From an uncultured archaeon (lineage in GTDB: Archaea; Iainarchaeota; Iainarchaeia; Iainarchaeales; CSSED10-239): a DNA stretch of 25,262 nucleotides. A program made the position numbers and the translations under genes. The DNA is taken from the NCBI GenBank assembly GCA_964496765.1, contig CAZCAP010000011.1:1-25262 (forward strand), written 5' to 3'. Positions within the stretch are counted from its first letter, which is position 1. Each line of letters opens with the position of its first letter. Under the pieces are notes generated by a model. The model ran no database searches. It was not told the DNA's origin and saw nothing but the letters and a program-made list of their open reading frames with translations. Shown in pieces: positions 1 to 25,186 of this stretch.

Positions 1-83
1 ATAGTAGCCACAAGAATAACTAGGATAATAGATATTATTTCTGAGATACCCCTCCTACTTCTAAACAATTTAGTTACACTCAT
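1..83 (-). CDS. Archaeal type IV pilin-like protein, 5' fragment only (gene runs off the window start)
   Basis: Reverse-strand ATG at 83..81 reads MSVTKLFRSRRGISEIISIILVILVAT. This is a basic stretch, an RG|IS prepilin-type cleavage motif, then a hydrophobic helix, i.e. a class III signal peptide. It closely matches the N-terminus of the 3724..5232 product (KSKRGISEVITIILVILISV). It is truncated, so it is absent from the ORF track. Confidence 0.7.
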   Translation of the reverse strand, partial: MSVTKLFRSRRGISEIISIILVILVAT

Positions 84-534: not shown

Positions 535-1209
535 ATGAAAGCAATTAAATTATTAGAAATATTAAAGTCCTATCCAACTTTCAAATTAATAGATATACAG
601 AGAATCTTAAACTCCAATAGAAACTATGCAAGAACTGTGATAAACAGATTACTTAAACAAAAATATATTTGGAAGGTTTGTCCAGGTATATATACATCTA
701 ACACAATAATAGAAGAAATATCCTCAAATATAGTATATCCTTCATACATTAGTGGATGGTATGCATCTTATCACAAAGGATATACTGATCAAATAGTGAA
801 TAAGATAAATATATTTACTACAATTAAAAAACACCAAATTAAATTTAATAAGTATACAATAAAATTTATTAAAACCCGATATCTGTTTGGGTATGAAAAA
901 ATAAATAATACTTTTATTGCAGATGATAATAAGTTACTCATAGATGCATTACTTCATCCTAAGGAATTTGGTAATTTTGATGAAATAATTAATTTAGTTT
1001 CAAAAGGAGACTTTAACAAAAATAAAATTATATCTTATCTTAAGATAATTAAGAAACAATCAATTATCAAAAAAGTAGGGTATTTATTGGAAAAATATAA
1101 ACAAATAGATATTAGTTCGGGTTTTAAACTCAATAGTAATTATGTGATTTTAAATTCATTTTTAAAAAAATATAATAATACAAACACCAAATGGAGACTT
1201 AAATTATGA
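535..1209 (+). CDS. abiEi: AbiEi-like antitoxin / wHTH transcriptional regulator (type IV TA system)
   Basis: 224 aa. The N-terminal wHTH-like segment ends in the AbiEi-type KVCPGIYTS (G.Y) motif. The gene overlaps the downstream AbiEii-type gene by 4 bp (ATGA, 1206..1209), the canonical abiEi-abiEii arrangement. A TATA-like TTTTTTAAA lies about 25-30 nt upstream of the ATG. Confidence 0.7.
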   Translation: MKAIKLLEILKSYPTFKLIDIQRILNSNRNYARTVINRLLKQKYIWKVCPGIYTSNTIIEEISSNIVYPSYISGWYASYHKGYTDQIVNKINIFTTIKKHQIKFNKYTIKFIKTRYLFGYEKINNTFIADDNKLLIDALLHPKEFGNFDEIINLVSKGDFNKNKIISYLKIIKKQSIIKKVGYLLEKYKQIDISSGFKLNSNYVILNSFLKKYNNTNTKWRLKL

Positions 1210-1946
1210 TTACTAAAGAAGAACTAAAAGAATATTATAATCATTCCCTCTTTAATATTGGACAAGCAGAAAAAGATTATATGCAAAATATTGTGTTGTT
1301 CTGCATATATAGAATATATGCAAATGAGCTTATTTTCAAAGGTGGAACTGCTTTATCAAAATGTTATGGATTAGATAGATTTTCAGAAGACCTTGATTTT
1401 ACTTCTAAAGTTCATTTTAACACAAATAAGTTAAAATCTAAGCTAAAAGCCTTTCAAATAGAGTTTGAACTTGAAGAAAAGGAATTTCAAGAAAAAACAA
1501 CTAAAATCACATTACGAATTTATGGTCCATTATATAATGGGACCAGAAATAGCTTATGCAAAATAATACTAGATATAAGCTATAGGGATAATTTACTTGT
1601 ATCTCCTGAAATTGTAAAGATAATTTCTCAAAGAGAGATACCTTCATTTGATGTTTATGTAATGAACAAAGAAGAAATACTTACTGAGAAATTAAGAGCA
1701 ATAATTATGAGAGATAAAGCAAGAGATGTTTATGATTTATGGTATTTGTTGAAAGCAAAGACAAATATTAATACTAATCTTGTTACAAATAAGTTCTTGT
1801 TTTTCAAAGAGAAGTTTGATATAAAAATATTTAAAAATAGATTATTGGATAAGCAATCAATTTGGGATTCTGAATTATCTGGATTAATATCCAATGTACC
1901 AAATTTCAAAAAGGTTTATAATGAGATTATTGAACAGTTTAAATAA
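1206..1946 (+). CDS. abiEii: AbiEii/AbiGii-family nucleotidyltransferase toxin (DUF1814)
   Basis: 246 aa. FKGGTALSKCYGLDRFSEDLDF is the hallmark nucleotidyltransferase motif of this family. The later block RDKARDVYDLWYL is also typical. A GGAGA SD-like site precedes the start. Confidence 0.85.
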   Translation: MITKEELKEYYNHSLFNIGQAEKDYMQNIVLFCIYRIYANELIFKGGTALSKCYGLDRFSEDLDFTSKVHFNTNKLKSKLKAFQIEFELEEKEFQEKTTKITLRIYGPLYNGTRNSLCKIILDISYRDNLLVSPEIVKIISQREIPSFDVYVMNKEEILTEKLRAIIMRDKARDVYDLWYLLKAKTNINTNLVTNKFLFFKEKFDIKIFKNRLLDKQSIWDSELSGLISNVPNFKKVYNEIIEQFK

Positions 1947-1966
1947 ATTATTAAAAGTAGGAACTC

Positions 1967-2035
1967 AAAGTGTTCGATACTAACGAAAGCTTTTGACCAA
2001 AAGTGTTCGATACTAACGAAAGCTTTAAATATTAA
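1967..2035 (+). promoter_or_regulatory. 69-bp module, copy B: likely operator plus promoter of the ATPase gene
   Basis: Perfect copy of 232..300. The TATA box TTTAAATA at 2024..2031 lies about 31-38 nt upstream of ATG 2062, which fits a leaderless or very short-leader archaeal transcript. Confidence 0.6.
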
Positions 2036-2061
2036 TCTAATCATTATATTTATGATAATAT

Positions 2062-3333
2062 ATGATAACAAAGGAAGAATTAAAGAAAATAATTCAAGAT
2101 CAAAAGGAAAGTTTTAATAATAACCAGACATACATAACTAGAAATATATCACTTGATGAATATATAAAGACAGATCCAATTATAATTATAAGTGGAGTTA
2201 GAAGGTGTGGTAAATCTACACTTCTAAAAATTATAAAAGAAAAAATAATTAAAAATAATAAAAATATTAATTACTTATATTGCGATTTCTCTGATGAAAG
2301 ACTTAGCAGTTTAACAGTTTCAAATTTACAAACAATCTACGAAATATTTTTAGAAAAATATGAACCAGGAAAAAAATATTTCTTTTTTGATGAAATCCAG
2401 TATGTAACTGGTTGGGAAAAATTCGTAAATAGATTATATGAAAAAGAAAACGCAAAAATATTCATTACTGGATCAAATGGATCTTTACTTAGTTCAGAAA
2501 TCTCTACCGTTTTAACCGGAAGAAACAAAGTAATAGAACTTTATCCTTTCTCATTTAAAGAATATATAACCACAAAAAAAGAAGTAATAGACATAAAAAA
2601 CTTATCAACTAAAGAAACCATTAAATTAAATAAATATTTTGATAATTATTTCAAGATAGGTGGATTCCCATATGTAGTAAACACTGGTGACACTCAAATA
2701 TTAAAAGAATATTATACAAATATAATTTATAAAGATATAATTAACAGAAAGAAAATAAGACAAGTAAAAGAAATAAAGGAAATAATTTCATTTCTATCAA
2801 ATAATATAGGGCAAACTGTATCATATAATAAAATAATAGATAACTCAAAAATTAAAAGTACAAGTACAATTAAAAACTATATAGATTATCTTAATGAAGC
2901 GTACATTTTATTCACTTTACCTAAATATGATAAATCAATTAGAAAACAAATACAAAATCCAAAAAAAGTATATTTTATTGATATAGGAATGGTAAGACAA
3001 ATAAGTGTTAATTTTTCAGAAAATAATGGATGGTACCTTGAAAATATAGTATTTTTAGAATTATTAAGAAGAAATAAAGAAATATATTATCATAAAAATG
3101 GAAAAGAATGTGATTTTATAATGAAAGAAGGTACAAAGATTAAAGAAGCTATACAAGTATCCTATGAAATAAATAGAAAAAATGAAGACAGAGAAATTGA
3201 AGGATTAATTAGTGCATTAAAAACACATTGTCTTAAAGAAGGGACAATTATAACAAAAGAGCAAGAAGAAATAAGAACAATAGGCAAATATAAAATTAAA
3301 ATAATTCCAATAACCAAGTGGTTATTAGAATAA
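2062..3333 (+). CDS. AAA_14 + DUF4143 family ATPase (COG1373-like)
   Basis: 423 aa. Walker A is GVRRCGKST and the Walker B-like block is KYFFFDEIQY. Overall length and the C-terminal block ENIVFLELLRRN...ECDFIM...IQVSY are typical of this archaeal/bacterial ATPase family. Confidence 0.8.
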   Translation: MITKEELKKIIQDQKESFNNNQTYITRNISLDEYIKTDPIIIISGVRRCGKSTLLKIIKEKIIKNNKNINYLYCDFSDERLSSLTVSNLQTIYEIFLEKYEPGKKYFFFDEIQYVTGWEKFVNRLYEKENAKIFITGSNGSLLSSEISTVLTGRNKVIELYPFSFKEYITTKKEVIDIKNLSTKETIKLNKYFDNYFKIGGFPYVVNTGDTQILKEYYTNIIYKDIINRKKIRQVKEIKEIISFLSNNIGQTVSYNKIIDNSKIKSTSTIKNYIDYLNEAYILFTLPKYDKSIRKQIQNPKKVYFIDIGMVRQISVNFSENNGWYLENIVFLELLRRNKEIYYHKNGKECDFIMKEGTKIKEAIQVSYEINRKNEDREIEGLISALKTHCLKEGTIITKEQEEIRTIGKYKIKIIPITKWLLE

Positions 3334-3723: not shown

Positions 3724-5232
3724 TTAAAAAGATCTAACACATCTTATCCGCATGTTTTCAATTTTATTATAAAAATTAATTTCATCAGCATAAAAAACCC
3801 AATTATAATGATACAGATTGCTATATTCTGAAGATGTTGCATAATATCCAAGATTAGTAAACCCACCAATGGCAGCTCTATTTAAATAAAATTGGCGGAA
3901 TTCATATAAACTTGGTAAATACCAATCAGTATATCCATTTAAACTCAGATTATCACAAGTTCTTGCAGCAATTCCAGCAGTAGCACAACCATTTAAAATA
4001 TCTGTTGTATTTTGTTGCCCGGTTCCAATTGCTGTTCCATCTGCACCACTTAAAGCTGTTCCGCTACAACCCCATGGAGATTGAGTTTGATCGCTTGTTG
4101 GAGCTATTAAACCATGTTGTACTCCTGCATTATAACCAGCATCACCGGATTGTAAAATATAGGCAATAATTCCACCCTGGTAACTCATACCAATGGAAAG
4201 AGGAGTTATAGTATATGTTCCAGTGTATACAGAACTATTCGTATATCCACTCTTTGTAGCTATTGCTTTCAATGTTGTTGTTGAACCAATACTTATTGGA
4301 GAGGAATAAACTGAACTTCCTGTTGTTGGTGTACTTCCATCTGTTGTATAATAAATTGTTGAACCAGAAGTTGTTGAACTTAAGGTTACACTTTGAGCAG
4401 TTGTAAATGCACCTGCTTCGAGTGAAGCAACAGGAGTTGATAATTGATGTGTAACAACATAGGTTGCAGTATATACAGGACTTGGTGCATAACCAGGCTT
4501 AACTGCAATTGTTTTAATAGTTGTTGTTGAGTCTTCTGGAAGAGAGATTAAATCTCCAGAATACACACTACTTTCAGTGGTTGGTGTTGAGCCATCGGTT
4601 GTGTAATAAATGGTTGCACCATCTGGTGAAGATAAAACAAGATCTTGAGATTCATAATAATTATCTTCTGTTAAAGAAAAAATAGGATAGGAAACAACAG
4701 GAACTTCTCCTGAACAACCAGATAAGCTTATTGCTTGATTAGGACAAGTTTTATTTGTTAAAATCATACTTTCTATTTGATCAAAATCTAAAGATGCAAC
4801 AACATAATTTTCCTTAATAACATCAAATGAATCAAGAGTTGTATTTAATTCTTTAAACTCTCCTCTCTTAACCACATCATCAAAATAACCAACATAGGTA
4901 ATATCTTCTCCAGTAAATGTTTTTGATTTAACAGATAAAGTAAATCCACCATAATCTAAAGAAGTGCTATTAATTAGATTTATTGAAAATTCTTTAGTAC
5001 CAGTATTAATTGAACAGGATTCAACCTTAAGATTACTGTTTGCACAATCAAGCTCACTTCCCTTTGTAAAAGCACGACTTGCATTAGAAGAAGTATCTAA
5101 ACTCTTTTTAGTTATGTTTTTTCCATAGGCTAAAAAAGTTGCGATTAGAATAACACTAATAAGTATGACTAGGATGATTGTAATAACTTCCGAGATCCCC
5201 CTCTTACTCTTAACTAGTTTTTTTAGATTCAT
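3724..5232 (-). CDS. Pilin-like surface protein: class III signal peptide, Cys-containing N-domain, two CHB_HEX_C/Fn3-associated-like repeats, and a DUF1566 (Lcl C-terminal-like) head
   Basis: 502 aa. The N-terminus is MNLKKLVKSKRG|ISEVITIILVILISVILIATFLAYG. There are two ~80-aa repeats with the signature G(A/S)TIYYTTDGSTPT...SSVYS...T(I/L)K(T/A)IA.K.GY. The C-terminus (aa ~347-502) reads GGIIAYI...HGLIA...WGC...IGTGQQNT..IL...AA..C..L.LNGYTDWYLPSLYEF...RCVRSF, the DUF1566 pattern. Confidence 0.85.
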   Translation of the reverse strand: MNLKKLVKSKRGISEVITIILVILISVILIATFLAYGKNITKKSLDTSSNASRAFTKGSELDCANSNLKVESCSINTGTKEFSINLINSTSLDYGGFTLSVKSKTFTGEDITYVGYFDDVVKRGEFKELNTTLDSFDVIKENYVVASLDFDQIESMILTNKTCPNQAISLSGCSGEVPVVSYPIFSLTEDNYYESQDLVLSSPDGATIYYTTDGSTPTTESSVYSGDLISLPEDSTTTIKTIAVKPGYAPSPVYTATYVVTHQLSTPVASLEAGAFTTAQSVTLSSTTSGSTIYYTTDGSTPTTGSSVYSSPISIGSTTTLKAIATKSGYTNSSVYTGTYTITPLSIGMSYQGGIIAYILQSGDAGYNAGVQHGLIAPTSDQTQSPWGCSGTALSGADGTAIGTGQQNTTDILNGCATAGIAARTCDNLSLNGYTDWYLPSLYEFRQFYLNRAAIGGFTNLGYYATSSEYSNLYHYNWVFYADEINFYNKIENMRIRCVRSF

Positions 5233-5452: not shown

Positions 5453-8400
5453 TTATCCTGTGCTAGGTGGTACAACAGTTATAGATTGTAATTCCAAGAC
5501 ACCAGAACCAGAACCATAGAAATAAGGACTAACTCCACCATATGATCCAGCCCATTGATTAACCCAAGTTACATTTCCACTTGCATATGGGAATGGTGGA
5601 CGACTACCATAACCATCAGCTAAACAATGAAATGATGCACCTCCATTATCTACACCCACACAATAGGTTGTATTCGGACTAAGCACATAATTAATATTCA
5701 CTTCTGTTGTATTGGTAATTGGAGCAGATGCTAAATTTGGACCAGTACAAGAACCAGCACGTAGGAATCCATGAGTAGGCGATGTTCCCCATTGATTACT
5801 TGCAATCTTAATCTGAGTTATCTTTAATGTTTCACTACTTGTAGTAAAAGTGTCACCACATTCTTGGACCCCCAGTGCACCTCCATTAACACTTGGCCAA
5901 TATGGATTTGTTCCTCTCATTTCTTGTACAACCGGTGTTCCCCAGTCCTGCTGAACACAATATAATGCACATGAAAAACCACATACTCCTCCAGCCATAT
6001 TCCATAACCAACCACCTTCTTTGTGATCTAAACAATCTAGTGAACCTAATATACCAGATGTACTTGATGTCCAACTATTACAATTAAATCCAGAATATGA
6101 TCCGCCAGTTAGATTATCACCTGTACAAACATATCCTGTTTGAGTAGTTCCTGTTTCAGTAATACTAAAGTTTGCTTTTAGATTTCCATAGGTGTGCCCT
6201 GTCCAGAAATCAGCCCAATTATCAGCAATGGTAACTCCATCTAATCTTTTATATGGCACTGATGAATGTGAAAATCTAGAGGTTACTGAAGTTGATTCAC
6301 TGCTCAACCATGCCTTATATGCACCAGGTAATCCAGCAGCCGTTGCTGCTGCTTGACACTTTGCATCAGCTCCAGCCAATCCACCAAGGGTTGCACCAGT
6401 CCATTTGGATGCAGTAACAAACACATATTTAGAGCTTGCAGTATCTGTAAATAAAGGATACTTAATTATTACTATACCTGAACCACCATTAGCTCCTCCT
6501 GTTCCACCATATCTACTACCACCAGCACCACCACCACCAGTGTTTGCTACACCAGCATAGGCAGTCAAAGTTACTGAATCATGATTACCTCCACCACCAG
6601 TACCACCTGGATAAACAGCAGATCCATAATAATAAGATCCTGCACCACCACCAGCAAACCAACCTGCTGGAGACCCACCTACACTTGAAAATTGAGAATA
6701 TTGTAATCCATCTCCACCAGTAAATGGTCCATCAGTCATACCAGCTTCTGAAGCACCACCACCACCACCGCCATAAACACCGCTACCATATGAACCAGCA
6801 TATCCTTGTCCAGATACTCCACTTCCACCAGAACTTTGTGCAGAGCTTCCATCAGCTGCTCCTCCACCTCCACCAGAACCACCAGCACTACCAGGCATAT
6901 AACTCCCACCTCCACCAGCACCACCACCAATTGCAGTTAAAGTTCCGAAAATACTATTACCACCATTTGTTCCAGGACCAGCAGTATAATATGGAGTAGA
7001 CCCAATACCACCAGCACCAACAGTAACTGGATAGGCCTGAGCACTTACAGCAACGTAATCATACAATAATCCTCCGGCTCCTCCACCACCACCTCTGTGT
7101 CCTGATCCTCCGCCTCCACCACCAGCAACAACTAATGCCTCAACAGCACCAGAGAAGGTTGGGGTGAATGTTCCATTTGATGTAAATGTACTAATACAAT
7201 AATTTCCACTTACTGTTATTGTTCCTCCAGTAGCAGGACAAACTTTATAGGTTCCTGAATAAACACCACTATTTGCATACCCACTTTTAACAGCTATTGC
7301 TTTCAAGGTTGTAGTTGCATTTAATGTGATTGCTCCAGAATATAATGTACTCCCTGTTGTTGGAGTATCTCCATTAGTAGTATAATAAATTGTTGAACCT
7401 GCTTCTCCTGATAGAGTTATGTTTTGTGGAGTTGAATAATCACCAGCAACTGGTGAAGTTGTTGGTGTTGATAAAGTGTGTGTGACTGTAAAGGTACCTG
7501 AATAAACTTCACTATCTGCATATCCATTCTTTACAGAATATGCTTTTATTGTTGTTGTTGTATCAAGTGGAACAGAGATTGCTCCTGAATATAATGTACT
7601 TCCTGTGGTTGGTGTACTTCCATTAGTAGTATAATAAATTGTTGAACCTACTTCTCCAGATAAAGTCACACTTTGAGCAGAAGTGAATGAGCCAGCGGAA
7701 GGTGATGCAACAGGAGTTGATAACTGATGTGTGGTTGTGTAAACTCCACCAGAATATACTGCACTATCTCCATAACCTTCTTTAACTGAGAATGCTTTAA
7801 GTGTTATTGTTGTGTCTCCAGGAACAGAAATTCCTGTTGAATAAACAGAACTTCCAGTAGTTGGATCAGAACCATCAGTTGTATAATATGTTGTTGAACC
7901 TTCTTCAGTTGATAATGTAATTGTTTGAGCTGAAGTGAAATTTCCTGCAGCAGGAGAAGCACTTGGAGTTGCAAGAGTGTGAGTGATTGTAAATGTTCCT
8001 GAATATATAGGACTATCCCCATAACCACTCTTAACTGCTAATGCTTTAATATTCATGATTGTATCAATAGGAACATTAATTGCACTTGAATAAACTGAAC
8101 TTTCTGTGGTTGGATCTGAACCATCAGTAGTGTAATAAATTGTTGAACCTGCTTCTCCAGATAAGGTTACATCTTGAGCAGCATAAACAAAAGTACCAGC
8201 AACAGGAGATGCAACAGGAGTTGCAAGTATATGGGTTGTAGTAAAGTCACCAGAATAGATAGCACTATCTCCATAACCACTCTTAACTGAAAGAGCTTTA
8301 ATTGTCATACTTGAATCTATTGGAATTGAAATTGGGTCAGAATAAACATCATCAGTTATTGTTGGATCTATCCCATTAGTAGTATAATAAATTGTTGAAC

Positions 8401-8689
8401 CCTCTTCTCCAGATAAAGTTACATTTTGAGCAGATGTGTGTGCCCCAGCAACAGGAGATGCTGTTGGGGTTGCAAGAGTGTGGGTGATTGTGTAAACTCC
8501 TGAATAAACAGAACTATCTCCATACCCACTCTTTACTAGGATTGCTTTTATTGTCATTACTGTATCTATTGGGATATTAATTGGATCAGAATAAATATTA
8601 TCAGCAGTTGTTGGATCTGAACCATTAGTAGTATAATAAATTGTTGAGCCTTCTTCTCCAGATAAAGTTATATTCTGTGTTGTTGTAAA
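5453..8689 (-). CDS. C-terminal 1078 codons of an interrupted giant pilin-adhesin: six more stalk repeats, a glycine-rich domain, a DUF1554-like domain and an unknown Cys/Trp-rich C-terminal domain
   Basis: The frame is open from 8689 and is the same frame as 8690..9766 (both codon starts are 1 mod 3). The track's ATG at 8557 falls in the middle of a repeat (DTVMTIKAIL) and has no signal peptide. Repeats carry the signature LSGE.GSTIYYTT(N/D)G. Numbering by the track's 1034-aa ORF, the Gly-rich block is aa ~475-700 (VVAGGGGGGSG...GGSGIVIIKYP). KYVFVTASKWTGATLGGLAGADAKC...YCVQQ resembles DUF1554. The last ~165 aa are unassigned. Confidence 0.75.
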   Translation of the reverse strand, partial: FTTTQNITLSGEEGSTIYYTTNGSDPTTADNIYSDPINIPIDTVMTIKAILVKSGYGDSSVYSGVYTITHTLATPTASPVAGAHTSAQNVTLSGEEGSTIYYTTNGIDPTITDDVYSDPISIPIDSSMTIKALSVKSGYGDSAIYSGDFTTTHILATPVASPVAGTFVYAAQDVTLSGEAGSTIYYTTDGSDPTTESSVYSSAINVPIDTIMNIKALAVKSGYGDSPIYSGTFTITHTLATPSASPAAGNFTSAQTITLSTEEGSTTYYTTDGSDPTTGSSVYSTGISVPGDTTITLKAFSVKEGYGDSAVYSGGVYTTTHQLSTPVASPSAGSFTSAQSVTLSGEVGSTIYYTTNGSTPTTGSTLYSGAISVPLDTTTTIKAYSVKNGYADSEVYSGTFTVTHTLSTPTTSPVAGDYSTPQNITLSGEAGSTIYYTTNGDTPTTGSTLYSGAITLNATTTLKAIAVKSGYANSGVYSGTYKVCPATGGTITVSGNYCISTFTSNGTFTPTFSGAVEALVVAGGGGGGSGHRGGGGGAGGLLYDYVAVSAQAYPVTVGAGGIGSTPYYTAGPGTNGGNSIFGTLTAIGGGAGGGGSYMPGSAGGSGGGGGAADGSSAQSSGGSGVSGQGYAGSYGSGVYGGGGGGASEAGMTDGPFTGGDGLQYSQFSSVGGSPAGWFAGGGAGSYYYGSAVYPGGTGGGGNHDSVTLTAYAGVANTGGGGAGGSRYGGTGGANGGSGIVIIKYPLFTDTASSKYVFVTASKWTGATLGGLAGADAKCQAAATAAGLPGAYKAWLSSESTSVTSRFSHSSVPYKRLDGVTIADNWADFWTGHTYGNLKANFSITETGTTQTGYVCTGDNLTGGSYSGFNCNSWTSSTSGILGSLDCLDHKEGGWLWNMAGGVCGFSCALYCVQQDWGTPVVQEMRGTNPYWPSVNGGALGVQECGDTFTTSSETLKITQIKIASNQWGTSPTHGFLRAGSCTGPNLASAPITNTTEVNINYVLSPNTTYCVGVDNGGASFHCLADGYGSRPPFPYASGNVTWVNQWAGSYGGVSPYFYGSGSGVLELQSITVVPPSTG

Positions 8690-9217
8690 TTAACCTGGTT
8701 CTGGTGATGCAGTAATTGTTGATAATTGGTGAGTAATTGTATATGTTCCACTAAACACTTCACTATCTGCATATCCATCTTTAACGGAGAACGCATTTAT
8801 GGTTGTAGTTGTATCTGTAGAAAGAGTAATAGGATCTAAATAAACAGAGCTTGCGATTGTAGGAGTTGAACCATTAGTAGTATAATAAATTGTTGAACCA
8901 CTCTCTGATGATAAACTAATACTTTGAGAGGAACTATAGGATCCAGGAGCAGGAATTGATTCTGGAGTAGTTAACTGATGAGTGACCACATAGGTTTCAC
9001 TAACCACTGGACTTGGTGCAAATCCTGGTTTAACTGCAATTGTTTTTACAACAGTTGTTGAATCTTCTGGAAGAATAAATGATCCTGAATAAACCAGACT
9101 ATCAATGGTTGGATCTGTTCCATCAATTGTATAATAAATCACTGCATCTGGATCAGCAGAAATAACAACATCCTGAGAAGCAGAATAGGTATCTCCAGGA
9201 AGTGAGAAAAGAGGTTC
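7244..9217 (-). repeat. Eight tandem ~80-82-aa (~240-bp) domain repeats forming the adhesin stalk; they span the in-frame stop
   Basis: The recurring signature (F/Y)(T/S)(S/T)xQx(V/I)TLS(G/S)ExGSTIYYTT(N/D)GxxPT...(V/L)YS...K(A/T)(L/F/I/Y)(A/S)VK.GY.(D/N)S.(V/I)YSG.(F/Y)T(I/V)TH.L(A/S)TP was counted eight times across the two ORFs. The same repeat type occurs twice in 3724..5232. Confidence 0.8.
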
Positions 9218-9766
9218 TGGAGTGTAATCAACAGTAAATGTACAAAAAGATAAATCAACAACAGAATTTGGACAGGTTGCACTTACTAGGTTTAGAGAAT
9301 AGGATTCATCTAAATCTAAAACACCTAACTCTGCATCCTGTCTAACAATACTAAAAAAATCAGAATCCATTGACAATAATTTAGAACTACCGCTATTAAC
9401 ATTTGTTTTAAATAAACCAATTACAGACATGTTCTGTCCATAAATATCTTTACCAAGTACAGATAATGTAAAATTAGCAAAATCTTCTGTTGAATTATTT
9501 GTAATTAAAAAATTCACTTTTTTTGTGATTGTATTAATTGTACAAAATTCAATTTTATATTTTGCATTCTTACATTCTAATTCAGATAATACTTTTAGAT
9601 TTTCAGTAGTATCATCTAATTGTGTTCTCATTGAATTTTTTGACCAAGCAAGAATAGCACTTACTAAAATTGTTGCAATTAATATAACTAAGACTATTAC
9701 TATGATTGAAGAAACTGCTTTCTTCTTATTCGCTGCCCTAATTGTCTTATTGTGCTTATGCTTCAT
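8690..9766 (-). CDS. N-terminal 358 codons of the giant pilin-adhesin: class III signal peptide, N-domain and two repeats, ending at an in-frame TAA
   Basis: The N-terminus is MKHKHNKTIRAANKKKA|VSSIIVIVLVILIATILVSAILAW. The N-domain (ELECKNAKYKIEFCTIN...TCPN) is paralogous to that of 3724..5232 (ELDCANSNLKVESCSIN...TCPN). The ORF terminates at TAA 8690..8692, in the middle of a repeat unit. Confidence 0.8.
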   Translation of the reverse strand: MKHKHNKTIRAANKKKAVSSIIVIVLVILIATILVSAILAWSKNSMRTQLDDTTENLKVLSELECKNAKYKIEFCTINTITKKVNFLITNNSTEDFANFTLSVLGKDIYGQNMSVIGLFKTNVNSGSSKLLSMDSDFFSIVRQDAELGVLDLDESYSLNLVSATCPNSVVDLSFCTFTVDYTPEPLFSLPGDTYSASQDVVISADPDAVIYYTIDGTDPTIDSLVYSGSFILPEDSTTVVKTIAVKPGFAPSPVVSETYVVTHQLTTPESIPAPGSYSSSQSISLSSESGSTIYYTTNGSTPTIASSVYLDPITLSTDTTTTINAFSVKDGYADSEVFSGTYTITHQLSTITASPEPG

Positions 9767-9893: not shown

Positions 9894-10247
9894 CTATACC
9901 CATTTAAACCTATCGTTAATTTTAACAAAATTAGACTTTACCTTGATAGGCATCTCAAGTATGTATTTCGCTGGTCTTTTTGAGAGATAAAACCAAAAAG
10001 GAATTGCTTTTTTTTTGATATCAACAACTTTTTTGTTCTTGTCAAGAAAAATAACTTTAATTGGATAGAACACAAACATCATGTGTATTGATGAACCAAT
10101 TATTGATTCTGTTGGTCTTTCAAAAATCAAACAATAATCAAAATATTTTCTTCTTGAGAACATGAGTCCAAGGGCTTGTTTAAATTCAGTATCTGCAATC
10201 TTAACTTTCTTAATAATCATTTTTTTCTTAGTTACATTGTACAGCAA
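9894..10247 (-). CDS. DUF192 family protein
   Basis: 117 aa. IADTEFKQALGLMFSR, IHMMFVFYPIKVIFLDKNKKVVDI and AKYILEMP match the DUF192 pattern (A.t...r..GLM; M.n..ipLDiiFld..g.Vv.i; yvLE). Confidence 0.7.
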   Translation of the reverse strand: MLYNVTKKKMIIKKVKIADTEFKQALGLMFSRRKYFDYCLIFERPTESIIGSSIHMMFVFYPIKVIFLDKNKKVVDIKKKAIPFWFYLSKRPAKYILEMPIKVKSNFVKINDRFKWV

Positions 10248-10348: not shown

Positions 10349-11494
10349 TCACAATTCAACAACCACATAATAATAAATTATATATCTTGCTCCATCTTTA
10401 ACAATATTAAAATTATAAAAGGTTGCATCATTTACAAGAATAGTGTATTTTGCACAATTAAGTTTACACTCCCTATCATCTCCCGCAATAAAGTAAACCT
10501 CTTCAATTCCAACCCCATCACTTATGTACTTAGAACTAATTGACTCAAGAGATATTATCCTATCAAGAGTTATGTTTTCTGCACCAGTTAATTCCATGTG
10601 ATTAATACTTTCAACTAGAACATCAGCAGCCGTTGGTTTTGGAATGAACACCTGAAATAAAATAATAACAATAATAAAAAAGATACCAATGTATTTCAAG
10701 AATTCAATACTCTTTCCACCTTTTATGGAATGCATAACAAAGGCAGTAAAGAAAGATAATAGCAAACCAATATACAATAGAAAGTTATCAATAAACAACC
10801 TAGTTACTAAATCAGTATTTGAATACCATAAAAAGTTTCTACCAATCAATACATCAAAGTAAACCAAAACAAACAAAAAGATAATAAAAAAAACAATTGC
10901 TAAATAGTAGAGATTCTTAAAATATTTTTTTTTAAGATTCTCTTCCTTATAAATAGAAATGTCCTTGGAAATGTTTAATAGAACCCTGTTTAGAGGAACA
11001 TCACTTGTTTTAAATGTGTCCAGCAAAACAAGAGTGTGATTAATTATTGGGCTCTTAATTTCTTGATTAATGGATAATAGAGCATTATAAAGATCATCAC
11101 CCCAGGATAGCCTGGTTGCCATTCTTCTTACTTCAGAATCTATTGAACCATAGATATTATTGTTAGAGAGGTTCGTTAATGCAATTGCAAGGTTCTTTGT
11201 TGCCTTTTGCTCTCTTGAAAGATCCTGAAGAAAATACCCAAATTCTGCTTCAATTGATTTTCGTTTAGTGTATTTAATAACATATTCCAAAAGAAACCCA
11301 AGTGAACAAACAACAACACCAAATATTAATAATAGATAATAGATTGAACTAAGAAAGAAAAATCTATTTGTTATAAAAATAATTAATAATCCAGAAAGAA
11401 TACCAGCAATTTCAAGTATATCATATTCATGACTATAAAAGAATAGCATGAACTTATCTTCTAGCTTGTTTGCTTTTAATTTGTTTTCAACCAT
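10349..11494 (-). CDS. T2SS-F/FlaJ/TadC-like pilus platform membrane protein with a ~95-aa extracytoplasmic C-terminal domain
   Basis: 381 aa. After N-terminal TM helices comes a cytoplasmic helical block, EAEFGYFLQDLSREQKATKNLAIALTNLS...EVRRMATRLSWGDDLYNALLSINQEIKSP...LL. This is the T2SS-F pattern (fp.fl..la....G.sl..Al...l..G.....Al). More TM helices and a soluble tail follow. It lies next to the ATPase homolog and the peptidase. Confidence 0.65.
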   Translation of the reverse strand: MVENKLKANKLEDKFMLFFYSHEYDILEIAGILSGLLIIFITNRFFFLSSIYYLLLIFGVVVCSLGFLLEYVIKYTKRKSIEAEFGYFLQDLSREQKATKNLAIALTNLSNNNIYGSIDSEVRRMATRLSWGDDLYNALLSINQEIKSPIINHTLVLLDTFKTSDVPLNRVLLNISKDISIYKEENLKKKYFKNLYYLAIVFFIIFLFVLVYFDVLIGRNFLWYSNTDLVTRLFIDNFLLYIGLLLSFFTAFVMHSIKGGKSIEFLKYIGIFFIIVIILFQVFIPKPTAADVLVESINHMELTGAENITLDRIISLESISSKYISDGVGIEEVYFIAGDDRECKLNCAKYTILVNDATFYNFNIVKDGARYIIYYYVVVEL

Positions 11495-11522: not shown

Positions 11523-12365
11523 TTACTTGAATAATATTACCACTAGAACAAACTCCACAATAGGGAATATTATTGCAATAAACATTAATAAACTTCTTAT
11601 TGTTTCCATATCTAGAGGAATTAAAAATATACTTGATAAAAGAATAATCACGAAAAAGAATAAAAATATGTTAACTTCAAACAAAAGATTTATGCTTGAT
11701 TTCTTTTGCTCGCTAGCTTCTTTTCTTAATTGCTCAAGACTTGTTAAAAACTCACTAACCACCTTTCCTATCTGGTCCCTATTATCAATAACATCAATTA
11801 ATCTTCTAAAAAAATTCTTTTCAAGCTCAGAATAGGTTTCCCTAATAACCTGACGAAGAGTATCCTTAAGATTCAAATTAAGATTTGAAACTGTTATTAT
11901 TTTTTTTGCTTCTTCACTTAGTAACTTATTGTTCTCTAATTTTTGTAATATGTTTAATATGTCCTTTATGGTAAGTGCCTTATCCTCTAGAACAGATAGG
12001 TGCCTTATTGTGTTTTCAAGTTCGAAATCTATTTCTTTCTTCTTGGACTCAAGTATATAGTAGGGAAATTTACAGAGTAATATGAAAACTAGGCTTGCAA
12101 AGGTAAAGGATAATAAAAGAGTTATAAAAAAGGAAAACATATTAAATAAAATATTTAGTTTGACCATAACTAGAATAATTCCAAATTCAATTAATAAAAA
12201 GAGCAAGAAAGAAGTTAATAAAACATTTGAAAGGTATGTAATTGCATCTTCATTTATGTTTGCATAGGTAAGCACTTTTGTGAAATTCTTGAATCTATTT
12301 TCAAATGTTGAAACTAATTCCCCAAAAAGGTATGTGGATAGTTTCGTAAATATTTTTCCAAACAT
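11523..12365 (-). CDS. T2SS-F/FlaJ/TadB-like pilus platform membrane protein (first half of a split FlaJ)
   Basis: 280 aa. The order is TM helices, a helical cytoplasmic block (IDFELENTIRHLSVLEDKALTIKDILNILQ...LKDTLRQVIRETYS...FFRRLIDVID) and C-terminal TM helices. Together with the 381-aa neighbour it approximates the length and two-domain layout of archaeal FlaJ/TadC proteins. Confidence 0.6.
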   Translation of the reverse strand: MFGKIFTKLSTYLFGELVSTFENRFKNFTKVLTYANINEDAITYLSNVLLTSFLLFLLIEFGIILVMVKLNILFNMFSFFITLLLSFTFASLVFILLCKFPYYILESKKKEIDFELENTIRHLSVLEDKALTIKDILNILQKLENNKLLSEEAKKIITVSNLNLNLKDTLRQVIRETYSELEKNFFRRLIDVIDNRDQIGKVVSEFLTSLEQLRKEASEQKKSSINLLFEVNIFLFFFVIILLSSIFLIPLDMETIRSLLMFIAIIFPIVEFVLVVILFK

Positions 12366-12396: not shown

Positions 12397-15300
12397 TTAT
12401 GCAAGTAAATCTATTCCTAGTCTTTTTACAACCTTATCTTCATCTATTAAAAACTCTGTAATTATACTATTAAAATCACGATAGTCTGCTATATTTGTAT
12501 CACTCAACCATCTCATGTATTTCTTTCTTTTATTGAAATTAACAATATCAATTGTGGATGATAATAGGTTTAAATGATAGGCCCTATCCTTAGTTGAAAG
12601 CTCAACAGTAATAAAATCATTCCTATCTACAATTTCTTCAATTTTAACTATTTGAGTGGTTTCATTAAACCCAAGTTTTAATTTTTTGAGTTCAATTATA
12701 ATTGCTTTTTGACCCATATTTTTCATATTTTCTCTTAGCTGTGGAATCTGACTATAGTTCACATAGCAGAGATTAATTGAATACCAAGGAATATCAAATA
12801 TATCACTTCCAAACTCATCCACAAATATATAATCTGGTCTCTCTGATATTGTGTGTTGGATAATTGTTTTTTTATCAATATCCTCTGATCCAGTAACCAC
12901 TCTTTTTATCCATTGTTTTTGTGGAAGTTTAATTCTATCATAGGACTGAATAGATATTATTTTTTTATCAGGATATAATAAGCCCACTGAATTCAAGAAA
13001 ATAAAAGAAGTATCATCTCCTGTTAATATTACTTTATAATCTTCACTTATTGCACTCCAAATGTATGCAAAAACATCAATAGTTCCAACTCCTGATTTAA
13101 TTAATGTAACTGGGGTTAATGGTGCTTCAAGATATTTCTTAATAACAAATGAAGAGCCCTTGCTACTTAGATCTCCTGCTGAGAATAATCCTTCAACCTT
13201 GTAGCCGTTTGGAAGATAACCTTCAATTATTGGGTGTGCAGAATTAACATACATGCCCATGTTCTTTGTTAGAAGAAGAACAAATTGGTTTAGTTTATTT
13301 ATGTTATCAAAATTTATATTTGTTTCTAGAGTACCATAATCTAGATGATAAACAATCACACTTGTTTTCTCTCCTGCACAGGAAACCTCAAGCACTTTCT
13401 TATCTGACAATAGTGCAGTCAATATTCCTAGTCCTGAAAACTCTCTCTGTATGAACTTATAAAATAATTTCTTATCAAGTGAATTTACCTGGTAGGCTAG
13501 CTTTGATATTGCAATATCAAATATTTTTTTTGTGTATTGCTCAAGAGTATATTTATCTCCACTAAATGTATAATAATTTTGATCAATGGAATTAAAGAAT
13601 ATTTTCTTAATCTCATAGAAGACCTTATTCTGTTCAGGAGTTAGATCAAGTTGCACCATGTTATAGAATAATCCCTTATCTTTGACATAGGAGATTGTAA
13701 CATAGGTGAACTCATCAAGAGCATACTTTTCAAAAACCTTTGTAACATCCAAATCAATTACATTCATTGGTATTGAATAAACCAGAGATTGAATTTTGTC
13801 TTTTTCAAAATTAAAGGCACGAGGGGTTGAGTATACTCCTTCTTGTCCAACAAATCCTGCATTCTTAAAAGAATCAGCTCTTGCATCCTTTGGAAGAATA
13901 TAGGACATTCTTTTATCCTTTGGGCTAGGAGCAACATCTTTATTAAGATAAACCTCACTTTCTGCTTTTGGCTCAATCTTTGGGAGTTGGGTTTGTAAAT
14001 CAACTACCTTTACTTCAGTTGGCCTATTCCTCTCTTGATTCATAAATATATTTAATTTTGCTTTTTCTTCTTCCAACTCTTTTTCAAGAACAGATATTCT
14101 AGGATCTGGTTTTGAAGGCACCTGCTCAGGAGATGCTTCTTTTTTGCTTTCAACAAAAATATTTATATTTTGCTTTTTTGAAGGATCTTGTTTTTTATAA
14201 TCTTTTTCTTTTTTTAATTTATTTTCATTTAATCTTTGTAGATTATCTTCTACCTTTTTATTCAGTTCTGGTCCTGATTTGGTATCCACGAAGGTTGGTA
14301 TATGCATGTCCTCCTGGCGAAGTTCCATTGATTCACTAAACTTATTATTAACTAAGCTATCAATGTCTGCGATATTATCTTTAATGGGAATAATTTCTGG
14401 AATAGTTAATTCTTCAATAATTGCATCTGTGTTTAGTTCCTGTTCTAGTTTCTTTCTTGAGCTTAATATTTGTTTTTTATCTAAGCTTTTTTCTTTTTCT
14501 TCCTGAGTTGCAATTAATTTTGCTTTTGCAAGTTTTGAAAGATCATCAATCTTTGAATAAAGATTTTGAACATTATAGGTTTTATAGGATATCTTACTTA
14601 CCTTAGGGAGTTCACCAGTGAAGCTATACAACTCAAGCATAGCATCATCAGAAATTAATGTTTTGGTTCTTCTATCAAGTTCAGATAATAATTCATTTAT
14701 ATCTTCAACAACAATTATTTTCATTTTTGGTTTTTTATGAATTTGTTTATTAATTTTATCAATATTTTTTTTATCCTCAACAACAACAGTAACATCTTCT
14801 AAATCTGCCTTGGTATATCTTTTATTTAGAGTTTCTTCTATTTCTTTTTGTATGCTTTCCTGGAGATTCCTTTGCTGTCTTTCATGGAATTGTTTTTCTA
14901 ATGTTTCTGGGAGTTTATCCAGAGGAATAGACATTGGAAGTTCATGCAATTCATCAGGTTTGAAATCATAAATTTCTGATGGTAACTCCTGAGGAATAAC
15001 AATTGGAAGCTCCTGGGGAATAACAATTGGAAGTTCCTGAGGGATAACAATTGGTAACTCCTGAGGAATAACTTCTGGAAGTTCCTGAGGGATAACAACT
15101 GGTAGTTCCTGAGGAACAATTACTGGTAGCTCCTGGGGAACAATCATTGGTTCCTCTACACTAGTCAAATCTGGTTCTTCTCTCAATAGTTTAGGTTCTG
15201 GTTTATCTAAAGAAGGAGAAATAATTGGTTTATCTAGTTCATCAAATATATCTTTGGGAACTGCAGTTACTGGAATTATTGGTTTTTCTTCTGGATAATT

Positions 15301-15795
15301 TTTCTTGACCTTTGAGACAATCTTTTCTGATTCTAATTCTTTTGGGATTGGCTTTTCCAGAGGAGGAGAAGCTAATTTATTTTCATCAACATCATCTAAT
15401 TTAATTTTTTTAATCTCAATAACTGGTTCTGGCTCCTTTATTTGCTCACCTTTATGCAAGGATTTAAAATCAAATAATTTAATTCCAGGAGCTTTGACCT
15501 CATTGAAATCAATTTTATCTTCTTTTGAATCATTTACATCATCTTCAGTAACCGTTATTTTCCTTCTAGCGGTTCTACTTTTCAATGGAGTAAAATGAGT
15601 AATATTTTCATGATGTTCATCCTCAGCAACAGAAATAGAAGAAGATATTTTTGAGGTAATTTCACTAGTTAAATCAATCTTTTCAGAAACAGGTTCATTA
15701 TCTGGCACACCTATGGTTGAATTAATCTTTTTTAAAGTGATACCTGTATCACTGTTCTTGTCTCTTTCATTCGTTGACTTTTTATATTTTTTCAT
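12397..15795 (-). CDS. FlaI/PilB/VirB11-family secretion ATPase homolog with a degenerate P-loop and a ~690-aa low-complexity N-terminal extension
   Basis: 1132 aa. Residues ~690-1132 carry ordered family motifs: [66 protein letters not shown] and [10 protein letters not shown]. The Walker A position reads [14 protein letters not shown] instead of G..GSGKTT.LNA. The N-terminal part is K/E/P-rich and contains the PQELPxVI repeats. Confidence 0.8.
   Translation of the reverse strand: [1132 protein letters not shown]
14974..15147 (-). repeat. 24-bp tandem repeat, about 7 units, encoding (I/V)(V/I)PQELPx octapeptides inside the ATPase-homolog gene
   Basis: Plus-strand units include GGTAACTCCTGAGGAATAACAATT, GGAAGCTCCTGGGGAATAACAATT and GGAAGTTCCTGAGGGATAACAATT. 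The protein reads [59 protein letters not shown] (aa ~217-274). Confidence 0.9.
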
Positions 15796-15889: not shown

Positions 15890-16630
15890 CTAGAGGAATG
15901 CAGAAAAGTATTGAAATATAAATGGAAACCTAAAAACAAATAGAATAATAACTGTAAAAATATAGGACAATAGGATAAGCAAAATAAATGGAAGAAGTGG
16001 TGAAACCCAAACATATTTGATATGGTGTTGCTTTGAAAACTTTTTAAGCCTATTGATTTCCAAGAGTGGATTAAAGTTAGGAATAAATTTAGTTTCTCTT
16101 ACAATCCTACCATTCCTATAGCTTATTTTTTCAAGAGGAGTATTAAACTCATTTAAGCTTGATATTTTCTTAGGAGTTCCAAGAAACATGAGACAAATGG
16201 ATTTAAACAAGGGATAACTTGGATAGTAGCCTCTAAATTTGTTATAGAAAAATAATAAAATAGGAATTCCAAGCATAAATAACAAAGCAAACAAGAAAAC
16301 AACTATAACAAATAAATATGAATACATGCTTGTGAATGCAAGTGCAACAATTGTATAGAGATCGCCTTCACCAAGATATGCAAGCTTGGTTAGTCTCCCA
16401 ATCAAATAAATTATTAATACAAAACCAAAAACAATTGCAATTTGAATAAAGTAACTCTTCCACAAACCAAAATTAAATTGAAACACAAATATTCCTAAAT
16501 AAAAAAGTGACAGAATAGCCAATAGAATAAGATAAGTAATATTTATTTCTCTGGATTTAATATCCTGGTAGGAAACATATCCAAGTAACAAAATTGTTAA
16601 AATAATTATTGGAAGGTAAACTAAACTCAT
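15890..16630 (-). CDS. A24-family prepilin/preflagellin peptidase (PibD/FlaK/EppA-like)
   Basis: 246 aa, polytopic membrane protein. The first catalytic Asp context is YQDIKSREI near the N-terminus. The second is in the GxGD-type motif YLGEGDLYTIVALAF. It sits adjacent to pilins carrying matching (K/R)(G/A)|(I/V)S cleavage sites. Confidence 0.85.
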   Translation of the reverse strand: MSLVYLPIIILTILLLGYVSYQDIKSREINITYLILLAILSLFYLGIFVFQFNFGLWKSYFIQIAIVFGFVLIIYLIGRLTKLAYLGEGDLYTIVALAFTSMYSYLFVIVVFLFALLFMLGIPILLFFYNKFRGYYPSYPLFKSICLMFLGTPKKISSLNEFNTPLEKISYRNGRIVRETKFIPNFNPLLEINRLKKFSKQHHIKYVWVSPLLPFILLILLSYIFTVIILFVFRFPFIFQYFSAFL

Positions 16631-20892: not shown

Positions 20893-21678
20893 ATGAATAG
20901 ACAATGCCCAAAATGTGGAGAAGAGATAACAGATGATAACGAGGTTTATAACTTCTGTATTGATTGCTATCTCAAGGATCATGAAATAATTGTTCTCCCA
21001 AAAATAGATCTTGTTTATTGTGTTAAATGTTCAAAGGTTAAGTATGCAGGTAAATTCTTTGATACTCTTGAAGAGGTTGAAAAAGCAATTGAAAAGCACA
21101 CAAAAATTAAAGAACTGGATACAGGTAAGCTCTCTATAAAATTAAATTTAGATTTTGAAAAAGGAGACTATTCAGTTAATGTTGTGCTTAAGGCATTGGT
21201 TGGACAAAAAGTAATAAGTGTAGAAAAAAAGGAAAGAGTTACAATTAAGAAGGAAGTATGCCAGGTTTGTTCAAGGGTTGCTGGAAACTATTTTACAACC
21301 ATTCTACAGGTTAGATTTCTTGATAAAAAAATTAAAGAACAGATTGGAAACCAAATTTACAACCAGATATATGACATGGTTGATTCAATTAATCAAAGTG
21401 GAACTAATAATCCAGATTCAACAATACACATTGTTAAGGAAGAAGTACAAAAAACTGGTGTTGATTTCTATTTAGATAACGTAAAGCAAACACACTTCAT
21501 AATGAGCTCTCTTCTAAAGAACAAATATGCAATGGATCATAAAATATCAAACACTCTTTTTGGATTAAGTAAAGAAGGACAGAGAGTGTATAGGCATACC
21601 TTTTGTATACATTTTGGAGAAAAAGAATTAGCACCTAAAGAAAGAGCAAAGCTAGAGGAAAAAGAACTTGAGGAATAG
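20893..21678 (+). CDS. NMD3-family protein (archaeal homolog of the 60S export/maturation factor)
   Basis: 261 aa. The paired Cys clusters CPKCGE...CIDCY...CVKCSK and later CQVCSRVAGNYFTTILQVR match the NMD3 N-terminal pattern (C..C...C..C...C..C; C..C.r...gy.eAilQlR). Confidence 0.75.
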   Translation: MNRQCPKCGEEITDDNEVYNFCIDCYLKDHEIIVLPKIDLVYCVKCSKVKYAGKFFDTLEEVEKAIEKHTKIKELDTGKLSIKLNLDFEKGDYSVNVVLKALVGQKVISVEKKERVTIKKEVCQVCSRVAGNYFTTILQVRFLDKKIKEQIGNQIYNQIYDMVDSINQSGTNNPDSTIHIVKEEVQKTGVDFYLDNVKQTHFIMSSLLKNKYAMDHKISNTLFGLSKEGQRVYRHTFCIHFGEKELAPKERAKLEEKELEE

Positions 21679-21681
21679 GTT

Positions 21682-22455
21682 ATGCAACCTAAGCTTGTTT
21701 CAAAAATAATTAAAAGATTAAAACCAAAAAGCATAGAAGAAAGATTAATAAACATAAGAAAACTTGAAAAAAATATAGGTTATAAGAAAAAACCTAAATC
21801 TCCTATTTATAGTAAAGAAGTTCCAAAAGAAGCAATAGACCATTTTTTTGAAAAGCTTGAGAACGGAACACTAAACAAATTCTATGAAGATAGAGCAAAG
21901 GATCCAAAAAAGAGTAAAAACATAAAAGAATGGATCAATAAAGGAAAAATCATTCCAGAGGTGCCAAGAATAGTTTTCCCAATAACACCTTCAGTTCTAG
22001 GAACAGTGAGAATACTTAGTAAAGGATACTTAACTGCTTATTTAAAATCAGCAACTGCATTCTATAGAACTGTTGGAGAATACAAAAATAAGTTTAATAG
22101 TTTTGAGATTCAACCAATTAATATTTTAGGAATACAAAAATTAAAAACAGGGAAATATGCTCTCCTAGAGAAAGTATATCCAGCAATGTCTATTGCAGAT
22201 CATCTTTTTTTTAGCAAAGAAGAATTAAATAGATATTATAAATCAACTATTAGATTCTTTGGAAATGAAAATTCAAAACTCACTGCAGAACATAAAGACA
22301 AACTAAGAATTGCATACAATGAGTACAAGCACAAATTTTATAAGACCGCAGACATCGCAGAAGGAAACGTGTTGGTTCTTGATTACAACCCAGGAACAAA
22401 AAAGTTCTTGTTTGGACCAATAGATTTTGTTGGACAATCTCCATCGCAATTATAA
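21682..22455 (+). CDS. Hypothetical protein (possible atypical kinase-like catalytic-loop motif)
   Basis: 257 aa with no confident family. It lies 3 nt after NMD3, apparently in the same operon. ADIAEGNVLVL...PIDFVGQ resembles the D....N catalytic loop plus a DFG-like metal-binding motif. Confidence 0.5.
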   Translation: MQPKLVSKIIKRLKPKSIEERLINIRKLEKNIGYKKKPKSPIYSKEVPKEAIDHFFEKLENGTLNKFYEDRAKDPKKSKNIKEWINKGKIIPEVPRIVFPITPSVLGTVRILSKGYLTAYLKSATAFYRTVGEYKNKFNSFEIQPINILGIQKLKTGKYALLEKVYPAMSIADHLFFSKEELNRYYKSTIRFFGNENSKLTAEHKDKLRIAYNEYKHKFYKTADIAEGNVLVLDYNPGTKKFLFGPIDFVGQSPSQL

Positions 22456-25147: not shown

Positions 25148-25186
25148 TCAAAATATATTAATATTTTAAATTAATCTTAAATAAAG

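Follow-up and report, generated by a model that had tools for sequence, protein, structure and literature searches.

A gene for a predicted type IV pilin with a large C-terminal adhesin is split by one in-frame TAA codon (positions 8690-8692) in a 25,262-nucleotide (nt) stretch of DNA from an uncultured archaeon of the Iainarchaeota (GenBank assembly GCA_964496765.1, contig CAZCAP010000011.1, positions 1 to 25,262; the whole stretch is called the window here). This stop is real, and it belongs to a set of stops that is recurrent, clustered and specific to this gene family. We give roughly even chances to the explanation that the stop is decoded at a low level, such that one gene would yield a short structural pilin together with a rare full-length adhesin-pilin; the bypass of the stop in translation and the roles of both products are what we infer from sequence comparison. 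The proposed course of events begins with the placement of the stops, nearly all long family members carrying one, rarely two, TAA or TAG codons in an inter-domain linker just past the pilin module. Termination there would release a complete pre-pilin of 358 amino acids (aa) with a signal peptide, a pilin domain and two Ig-like repeats, to be processed by the neighboring peptidase and polymerized by the neighboring ATPase and platform proteins. A minority of ribosomes would decode the stop via a near-cognate or suppressor tRNA, and this bypass would give a 1437-aa pilin extended by a further six repeats, the glycine-rich domain and the lectin-like head; a single gene would in this way supply both the major structural subunit and a rare adhesin-bearing one.

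On the minus strand, an open reading frame (ORF; 9766..8690, 358 aa) ends at the TAA, which is codon 359, and the same frame (8689..5453) then stays open for 1078 codons up to a terminal TAA at 5453-5455. Apart from the terminal TAA, translation of 9766..5453 gave 1437 codons, of which a single one is a stop, in agreement with the first-pass annotation of this DNA, which had described one in-frame TAA splitting a 1437-codon pilin-adhesin within a repeat; its reading across the stop, ...TASPEPG*FTTTQNITLSGEEGSTIYYTTNGSDPT, was also recovered. The repeats, which it had put at ~82 aa, have a period of 83-84 aa and form eight tandem copies. The stop site, CCAGGTTAATTTACA, contains no homopolymer or short tandem repeat and lies in the linker at the start of repeat copy 3, at a position correctly described as variable (sister copies read T/S/A/T/N/S/D there). 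Against a median open length after a stop of 6 codons (77 ORFs of at least 100 aa in the fetched loci), the 1078-codon open frame is far longer than chance would give; in that set, a stop was otherwise followed by a long open frame only at NMD3, which has an adjacent in-frame gene. An independent start for the 1034-aa downstream ORF, already judged not to be a credible separate gene, was rejected: the first ATG, GTG or TTG past the internal TAA is at 8557, 45 codons on and in mid-domain, the ORF lacks a signal peptide, and three relatives have no in-frame ATG, GTG or TTG downstream (paralog B, B_L013 with 153 downstream codons and C_L015 with 184), so that these frames could be translated only through the stop. 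The G+C content of 5453-8557 is 40%, compared with 32% in the upstream part (8690-9766) and 30% in the window, which is largely explained by a composition rich in Gly, Ala, Ser and Thr.

The N terminus fits a class III signal peptide, with a basic leader, a [KR][GA] cleavage motif and a hydrophobic helix of ~20 residues (MKHKHNKTIRAANKKKA/VSSIIVIVLVILIATILVSAIL, the slash marking the predicted cleavage site; paralog leaders read ..SRRG/ISEIISIILVILVATIL). The NCBIfam model arch_flag_Nterm matches paralog C at a score short of its cut-off (16 versus 20 bits). An AlphaFold2 model of residues 1-185 has a helix at 8-54 followed by a beta-sandwich (predicted local distance difference test [pLDDT] 79, >85 in the sandwich), and its Foldseek matches in the PDB include the archaeal type IV pili 8fk7 and 6w8x, weakly (E ~0.02; template modeling [TM] score 0.33-0.43) and amid unrelated beta-sandwiches. 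Four cysteines (C65, C75, C165 and C175) are invariant in the pilin N-domain of 12/12 aligned members, which suggests two disulfides in a domain predicted to be extracellular. At the other end of the long product, the C-terminal domain is conserved in locus L019, with the same ending ...SITV.PPSTG.

Six loci were fetched, from five independent samples (ERZ27248961, ERZ27248920, SRR8437217, SRR8437247 and JGI 3300028191), and in every one the gene, TAA included, has the same sequence (100% identity); its 358-aa and 1034-aa products are recorded from ENA, JGI, Logan and NCBI assemblies. Because of this identity, an assembly or consensus artefact, one of the options that the first-pass annotation had left open, is ruled out. 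We take the window TAA to be real and fixed, and to be tolerated or maintained by selection. Its orthologs have TCA, TCA and CCA at codon 359; the TAA is therefore derived from TCA (Ser) by one C>A change.

A profile search with the pilin N-domain returned only 14 protein clusters among 5.8 billion, and DNA was fetched for most of these plus five metagenome loci. The sequences all stem from assembled metagenomes of a few lakes; the family is small and the counts are low. Ten independent in-frame stops (seven TAA and three TAG) were found in A-type genes (the split gene and its orthologs) and in B- and C-type genes, in addition to two frameshifted genes (Table 1). The window stop, first treated as a singular event, is one instance of this family-wide pattern. 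All genes with at least three repeats carry a stop, except B_L022. In paralog B, the TAA at codon 357 falls on a conserved Gln of repeat 3 and is followed by 367 open codons to a genuine end. In complete genes, no stop lies beyond the first 20% of the nonsense-mutable target that follows the pilin domain (P ~3 × 10−4), and the stops of the family lie at domain linkers, where they replace S, Q, E, Y, L and P or variable positions. TGA accounts for none of the ten events (24-35% expected from codon content; P = 0.014-0.06), as would be expected if a UAA/UAG-reading tRNA, or a tolerance confined to those codons, played a part. The C_L015 allele was found in three assemblies and the B_L013 allele in two, in each case with the stop. 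Short architectures also exist as genuine stand-alone genes of 170, 178 and 343 aa, the last (L019 9392-10423) being a complete gene with the pilin and two-repeat architecture; the truncated 358-aa product is therefore a plausible working pilin.

Each of the four A orthologs has one stop, at codons 359, 347, 348 and 263, and at each of these the other three orthologs have sense codons (TCA/TCA/CCA, CAA/CAA/CAG, TCA/TCA/TCA and CAG/CAA/CAG); three of the four stops lie within 13 codons of one linker, THQLSTITASPEPGx. By this codon comparison, the A-type stops are independent and derived. All four orthologs retain eight repeats. The ratio of nonsynonymous to synonymous divergence (dN/dS; Nei-Gojobori estimates from pairwise MAFFT alignments of repetitive proteins) was 0.22-0.31 for the downstream repeats, compared with 0.15-0.40 for the upstream repeats, whose translation is certain (orthologs at dS 0.3-0.75), 0.25-0.5 for the whole downstream frame (window versus orthologs) and 0.31 for the distal head (window versus L019). 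A distal value of ~1 against L020 was not used, as it came from misaligned, non-homologous C termini, the L020 gene ending after the Gly-rich domain. Among the C-type genes, C_L015 (GCA_005795785.1) and C_L020 (Ga0247841) share TAA176 despite 12% nucleotide divergence. After this shared TAA, dS was 0.41 and dN 0.096 (dN/dS 0.235; Fisher P = 8 × 10−10), and neither a gap nor a stop is among the 81 downstream differences between the two, although 3.6-4.5 stops are expected under neutral simulation (P of none = 0.008-0.023). Local gene conversion was rejected as the source of the shared TAA because the two genes differ at −13, −6 and +10 nt. The stop codon is conserved in this C-type pair (dS 0.4) and at B codon 176 (L013 and L027), and it differs in position among the four A-type genes. 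Under a neutral-decay model in which the stop arises at a random time on the terminal branch (branch lengths being rough, at half the pairwise dS), the chance of no second stop was 0.019, 0.026, 0.060 and 0.078 for the four A orthologs, or ~2 × 10−6 jointly with indels ignored. The window gene does not look like a decaying pseudogene, having one lesion only and the low downstream dN/dS given above. These substitution patterns indicate that the downstream sequence is under purifying selection, also where the stop is shared.

The selection on the downstream frame and the recurrence of stops in paralogs and orthologs strongly disfavor the very recent, one-off nonsense mutation that the first-pass annotation had listed. 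Its remaining option, on/off or readthrough control, is the one that the comparative evidence favors, the bypass step itself being our deduction from that comparison.

In L010 (~2995-3010) and L011, the related pilin gene P0009, which has a LamG-like C-terminal part, is frameshifted at a T7 run (ACTATTTTTTTGGG) in two assemblies, and this run could be a slipped-strand phase-variation site, an error common to both assemblies or a site of programmed frameshifting. The frame of B_L022 stays intact over 989 codons (seven repeats) and then has a 1-nt frameshift in the LamG domain, not at a homopolymer (L022 ~3160-3185), which is the sole late lesion in the family. In B_L013 (L013 5615-6603), repeat 2 is joined directly to the LamG region (..IYYTLDEGTGTS..), whereas the 95%-identical L022 has seven repeats; repeat arrays are reshaped by in-frame deletions. 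The 681-aa product of L020 3359-5404 has a C-terminal domain that resembles FGE-sulfatase/C-type-lectin folds (..GYCIDKYEAS..GFRCC..). Folds of this kind are a typical target of retroelement-driven diversification; the fetched loci showed no reverse transcriptase. A scan of viral contigs found no relatives of the family, and a search of genome contigs returned only a contig of the metagenome-assembled genome (MAG) ELA007 that was already in the set. A junction-peptide search for intact alleles returned only generic CHB_HEX repeat proteins of ≤53% identity, a search that also missed the window's own ORFs.

Several observations weigh against decoding of the stops. No nucleotide context is shared around them (the base after the stop is T, A, T, C, G, G, G, T and A), and no consistent stimulatory RNA structure was found, 7 of 8 downstream segments being no more stably folded than their shuffled versions (z-scores near 0). 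No suppressor tRNA was found in the window or in the 13 related loci scanned, in which no tRNA of any kind was found, whole MAGs lying outside the scan. UAA, the commonest of the family's stops, is normally the tightest one. Two genes have two stops (L018, and L027 with TAA-GAT-TAA), which would cut readthrough multiplicatively. The A-type genes always have a stop, yet its position is not conserved, so each A stop could be young. At B codon 176, B_L014 has TAA and B_L022 has CTA (Leu) despite 95% DNA identity, and the more distant L027 has TAA176 again, plus a TAA two codons upstream, so that stops either turn over or arise repeatedly at one codon. In L025 and L026, a C-type pilin truly ends at the domain boundary, a full loss of the extension that fits progressive truncation. 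Finally, documented readthrough in archaea is limited to selenocysteine (Sec; UGA) and pyrrolysine (Pyl; UAG), and a 2021 review of recoding makes no mention of UAA (PMC8211752). Recoding of either kind does not fit the codons found here, the window codon and 7 of 10 events being TAA and none TGA.

In its general form, the proposal is that a lineage of uncultured lake archaea uses UAA/UAG decoding, by a near-cognate or an ochre/amber suppressor tRNA, as a built-in ratio device that sets a major short pilin against a rare pilin with an adhesin of ~1000 aa. Such decoding would require no cis element, which would leave the stop free to shift within the linker; we advance this wider claim tentatively, as somewhat short of an even chance.

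The alternative that survives best is mutational on/off switching, which we hold to be unlikely rather than implausible. Here repeatedly favored nonsense mutations would cut off the adhesin, and either a point mutation or the in-frame loss of the stop-bearing repeat would later undo them, with no translational bypass; the gain might be escape from a virus or host response, or a saving of cost, and the downstream sequence would be purged of lesions only in ON periods. Such switching accommodates the lineage-specific, derived stops of all four A orthologs, the turnover at B codon 176 (a two-step difference, TAA versus CTA, between close relatives), the coexistence of intact members (C_win, the 681-aa gene of L020 and B_L021) with interrupted ones, and the frameshift of one relative at a T7 run, a classical phase-variation site. 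Surveys of bacteria likewise find short-lived in-frame stops with frequent reversal (PMC7918605). A possible route to reversion exists in the window gene, in which an exact match of 30 nt between the cores of repeats 2 and 3 brackets the TAA (window 8400-8950, minus strand); recombination between its two copies could delete 83 codons in frame, stop included, but no ortholog has lost the stop-bearing repeat. The reversion target is one codon, compared with ~3000 nt for second lesions, so OFF alleles should mostly decay, yet there is no further stop in ~4,900 downstream codons. Every assembly seen per lineage carries the stop, the C-type stop is shared across a dS of 0.4 with a downstream dN/dS of 0.24, and all stops lie just past the pilin module, although an OFF switch could sit anywhere before the head. 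Switching by mutation accounts well for the turnover and poorly for the shared C-type stop, for the clustering and for the absent secondary lesions.

Two further explanations are improbable. A balanced polymorphism or strain mixture, in which both alleles occur in the population, the assembled sequence is that of the majority stop allele, and the downstream frame of stop alleles is kept intact by recombination with sense alleles, would fit the stop and sense codons of close relatives at B codon 176. However, the window, C_L015 and B_L013 alleles carry the stop in every assembly in which they were found, the window population looks clonal (100% identity), and the 14 family clusters, from a database that is incomplete, include no protein of >358 aa with an A-type N-domain. 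Slightly less credible still is plain, independent and very recent pseudogenization of a dispensable adhesin, with frames open for lack of time. Each A-type stop is indeed a single derived substitution, pilins without the extension exist, and surface adhesins are commonly lost; the joint probability of ~2 × 10−6 for the four A orthologs alone, the constrained sequence after the shared C-type stop, a downstream dN/dS equal to that of the upstream repeats, the clustered positions and the absence of such lesions from other genes in the loci all oppose it. A changed genetic code, with TAA and TAG read as an amino acid genome-wide, or a sequencing or assembly artefact is very improbable: the restriction to TAA and TAG and the three stops on Gln positions might point to the former, but TAA, TAG and TGA are all ordinary terminators in the window (10, 4 and 6 of 20 ORFs), which bears out the first-pass annotation in doubting global reassignment, the 14 ORFs that end with TAA or TAG do so with full Pfam domain coverage and abutting the next gene, frames after stops are short (median 6 codons), AspRS, aCPSF, NMD3 and the ATPase have no internal TAA or TAG, and the stops do not replace one particular residue, while independent assemblies are identical.

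Decoding of the stop would have its closest parallel in phage Q-beta, in which a stop lies between the coat protein and an extension; ribosomes that terminate there make the major subunit, and the few that read through make the minor subunit A1, which enters the same polymer and is needed for interaction with the host. The archaeal pilin resembles this in having its stop between a self-assembling structural module and a C-terminal extension. Q-beta differs as a bacterial RNA phage with UGA at one conserved, experimentally proven site, whereas the pilin is cellular, has TAA or TAG at a drifting position and only a putative bypass. In Streptococcus sanguinis, PilB and PilC have a type IV pilin module fused to a bulky adhesin module (lectin or vWA-like), are of low abundance and make the filament sticky. 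The archaeal pilin module is grafted to an adhesin module in the same manner; in this bacterium, abundance is set by separate genes and their expression, not by an in-frame stop. For CS3 pili, a 1989 report (Mol Microbiol 3:1685, as cited in PMC6681793) is said to have found an internal amber codon in a pilus biogenesis gene and to have proposed its bypass as a regulator of pilus production. CS3 is a bacterial chaperone-usher system and not type IV, the gene is that of an assembly component, and the stop is at a single locus and not a recurrent feature of a family. Phase-variable contingency loci of adhesins and pilins (Neisseria pilC and opa) switch at high rates at slipped-strand simple-sequence repeats. 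They resemble the present family in that the frame of a surface adhesin is disrupted while the rest of the gene is retained, and differ in that the window TAA is a point substitution without a repeat tract, only the L010/L011 relative having a T7 tract. Sec and Pyl likewise rest on sense decoding of a stop, in particular archaeal genes, that competes with termination, as is proposed for the pilins. Unlike the pilin stops, which are mostly UAA at unconserved positions with no element found, they use UGA or UAG and need a dedicated tRNA and machinery (Sec also a selenocysteine insertion sequence [SECIS]). In bacterial genes, in-frame stops that coexist with dN/dS <1 have been described as widespread, along with reversals and with two-step codon changes via a stop, and were proposed to lower expression (Belinky et al. 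2021, PMC7918605). The archaeal stops share with these their occurrence in genes kept under purifying selection; the bacterial events are mostly short-lived, scattered and enriched in mobile elements, whereas the archaeal stops are in one family, at one type of position, and one is shared across a dS of 0.4. In the literature searched on pilins, archaea or DPANN with in-frame stops or readthrough, the pattern was not found described.

The window is archaeal by gene content (NMD3, an aCPSF-type beta-CASP nuclease and Arc_PepC_II), and its source may belong with the small-genome (DPANN-like) archaea. The split gene lies in a type IV filament cluster (Table 1) with the same synteny in L008, L019 and L020. 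In the secretion ATPase, only residues ~690-1130 match the FlaI/PilB type; the N-terminal extension of ~690 aa has no recognizable family and is kept in orthologs of 1073-1209 aa (L008 and L019). Between paralogs C and B (window 535-3333, plus strand) lie an AbiEii toxin, a 224-aa partner and an AAA_14/DUF4143 ATPase. The same AbiEii/ATPase island adjoins a B-type pilin in L013 (2127-5168), and this defense or toxin-antitoxin island therefore travels with the pilin cluster. NMD3 (261 aa; window 20893-22455, plus strand) ends with TAG and is followed one codon later by an in-frame ORF of 257 aa without a Pfam, NCBIfam or PDB match, and the two are probably ordinary adjacent genes. The sole tRNA in the window is a tRNA-Arg(CCT) at 25186-25261 (minus strand).

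Table 1. Parts of the split pilin gene and its neighbors in the window (nucleotide positions), followed by the state of the frame in family members (codon positions)
Feature	Position	Strand	Description
Upstream ORF	8693..9766	-	358 codons; pre-pilin with class III-type signal peptide, pilin N-domain and two Ig-like CHB_HEX_C_1 repeats (PF13290, 1e-37); predicted product if translation terminates
Pilin N-domain, aa 1-176	9239..9766	-	Basic leader, KKKA/VSSIIVIVLVILIATIL hydrophobic helix, beta-sandwich, four invariant Cys
Repeats 1-2	8732..9232	-	Upstream of the stop
In-frame TAA	8690..8692	-	Codon 359, linker/start of repeat 3
Downstream frame	5453..8689	-	1078 codons + terminal TAA; translated only if the TAA is passed
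Repeats 3-8	7238..8731	-	CHB_HEX_C_1/Fn3_assoc; the first of them holds the stop
Glycine-rich domain	6458..7183	-	PF21722 Gly_rich_2, E 6.8e-21
Distal head	5456..6400	-	Endostatin/DUF1554-like (C-type-lectin-like) region, weak matches below Pfam cut-offs; then C-terminal domain without assigned family
DUF192 gene	9894..10247	-	Directly upstream of pilin A; conserved there in those related loci that extend far enough upstream
Two T2SSF/FlaJ-like platform proteins	10349-11494, 11523-12365	-	Part of the type IV filament locus
FlaI/PilB-like secretion ATPase	12397..15795	-	1132 aa; FlaI model E 3e-33, residues 691-995; PilB3_C
Archaeal prepilin/preflagellin peptidase (A24, FlaK-like)	15890..16630	-	Peptidase_A24 + Arc_PepC_II
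Paralog C	3724..5232	-	502 aa, intact; pilin N-domain, 2 repeats, Lcl_C-like head; GAA at codon 176
Paralog B	1..83	-	First 27 codons; complete gene in L030, a longer contig of the same organism
A_window	TAA359		Open downstream frame
A_L019	TAG347		Open downstream frame
A_L020	TAA348		Open downstream frame
A_L007	TAG263		Open downstream frame
B	TAA357		Open downstream frame
B_L013/14	TAA176		Open downstream frame
B_L018	TAG241 + TAA273		Open downstream frame
C_L015/16/17	TAA176		Open downstream frame
C_L020	TAA176		Open downstream frame
B_L027	TAA174 + TAA176 (TAA-GAT-TAA)		Contig ends just after
L010/L011			Frameshifted at T7 run
B_L022	Codon ~990		Frameshifted
C_window, L020 3359-5404, C_L019			Intact (502, 681 and 343 aa)
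B_L021, L008			Intact, partial
P0008, P0005			Genuine pilin-domain-only genes (178 and 170 aa)

If the stops are bypassed, readthrough would have a new use here, that of fixing the number of surface-filament subunits that bear an adhesin. This would also be the first readthrough system in archaea other than Sec and Pyl, and the first cellular pilus whose filament composition is set by a leaky stop. Annotation pipelines would then be systematically splitting or discarding the biggest surface adhesins in these small archaea, which are the likeliest mediators of their attachment to hosts or particles. If the stops are instead mutational on/off switches, the family would still show how adhesins are switched in archaea. 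In either case, about ten independent stops, together with intact and fully truncated relatives, make the family a natural test set.

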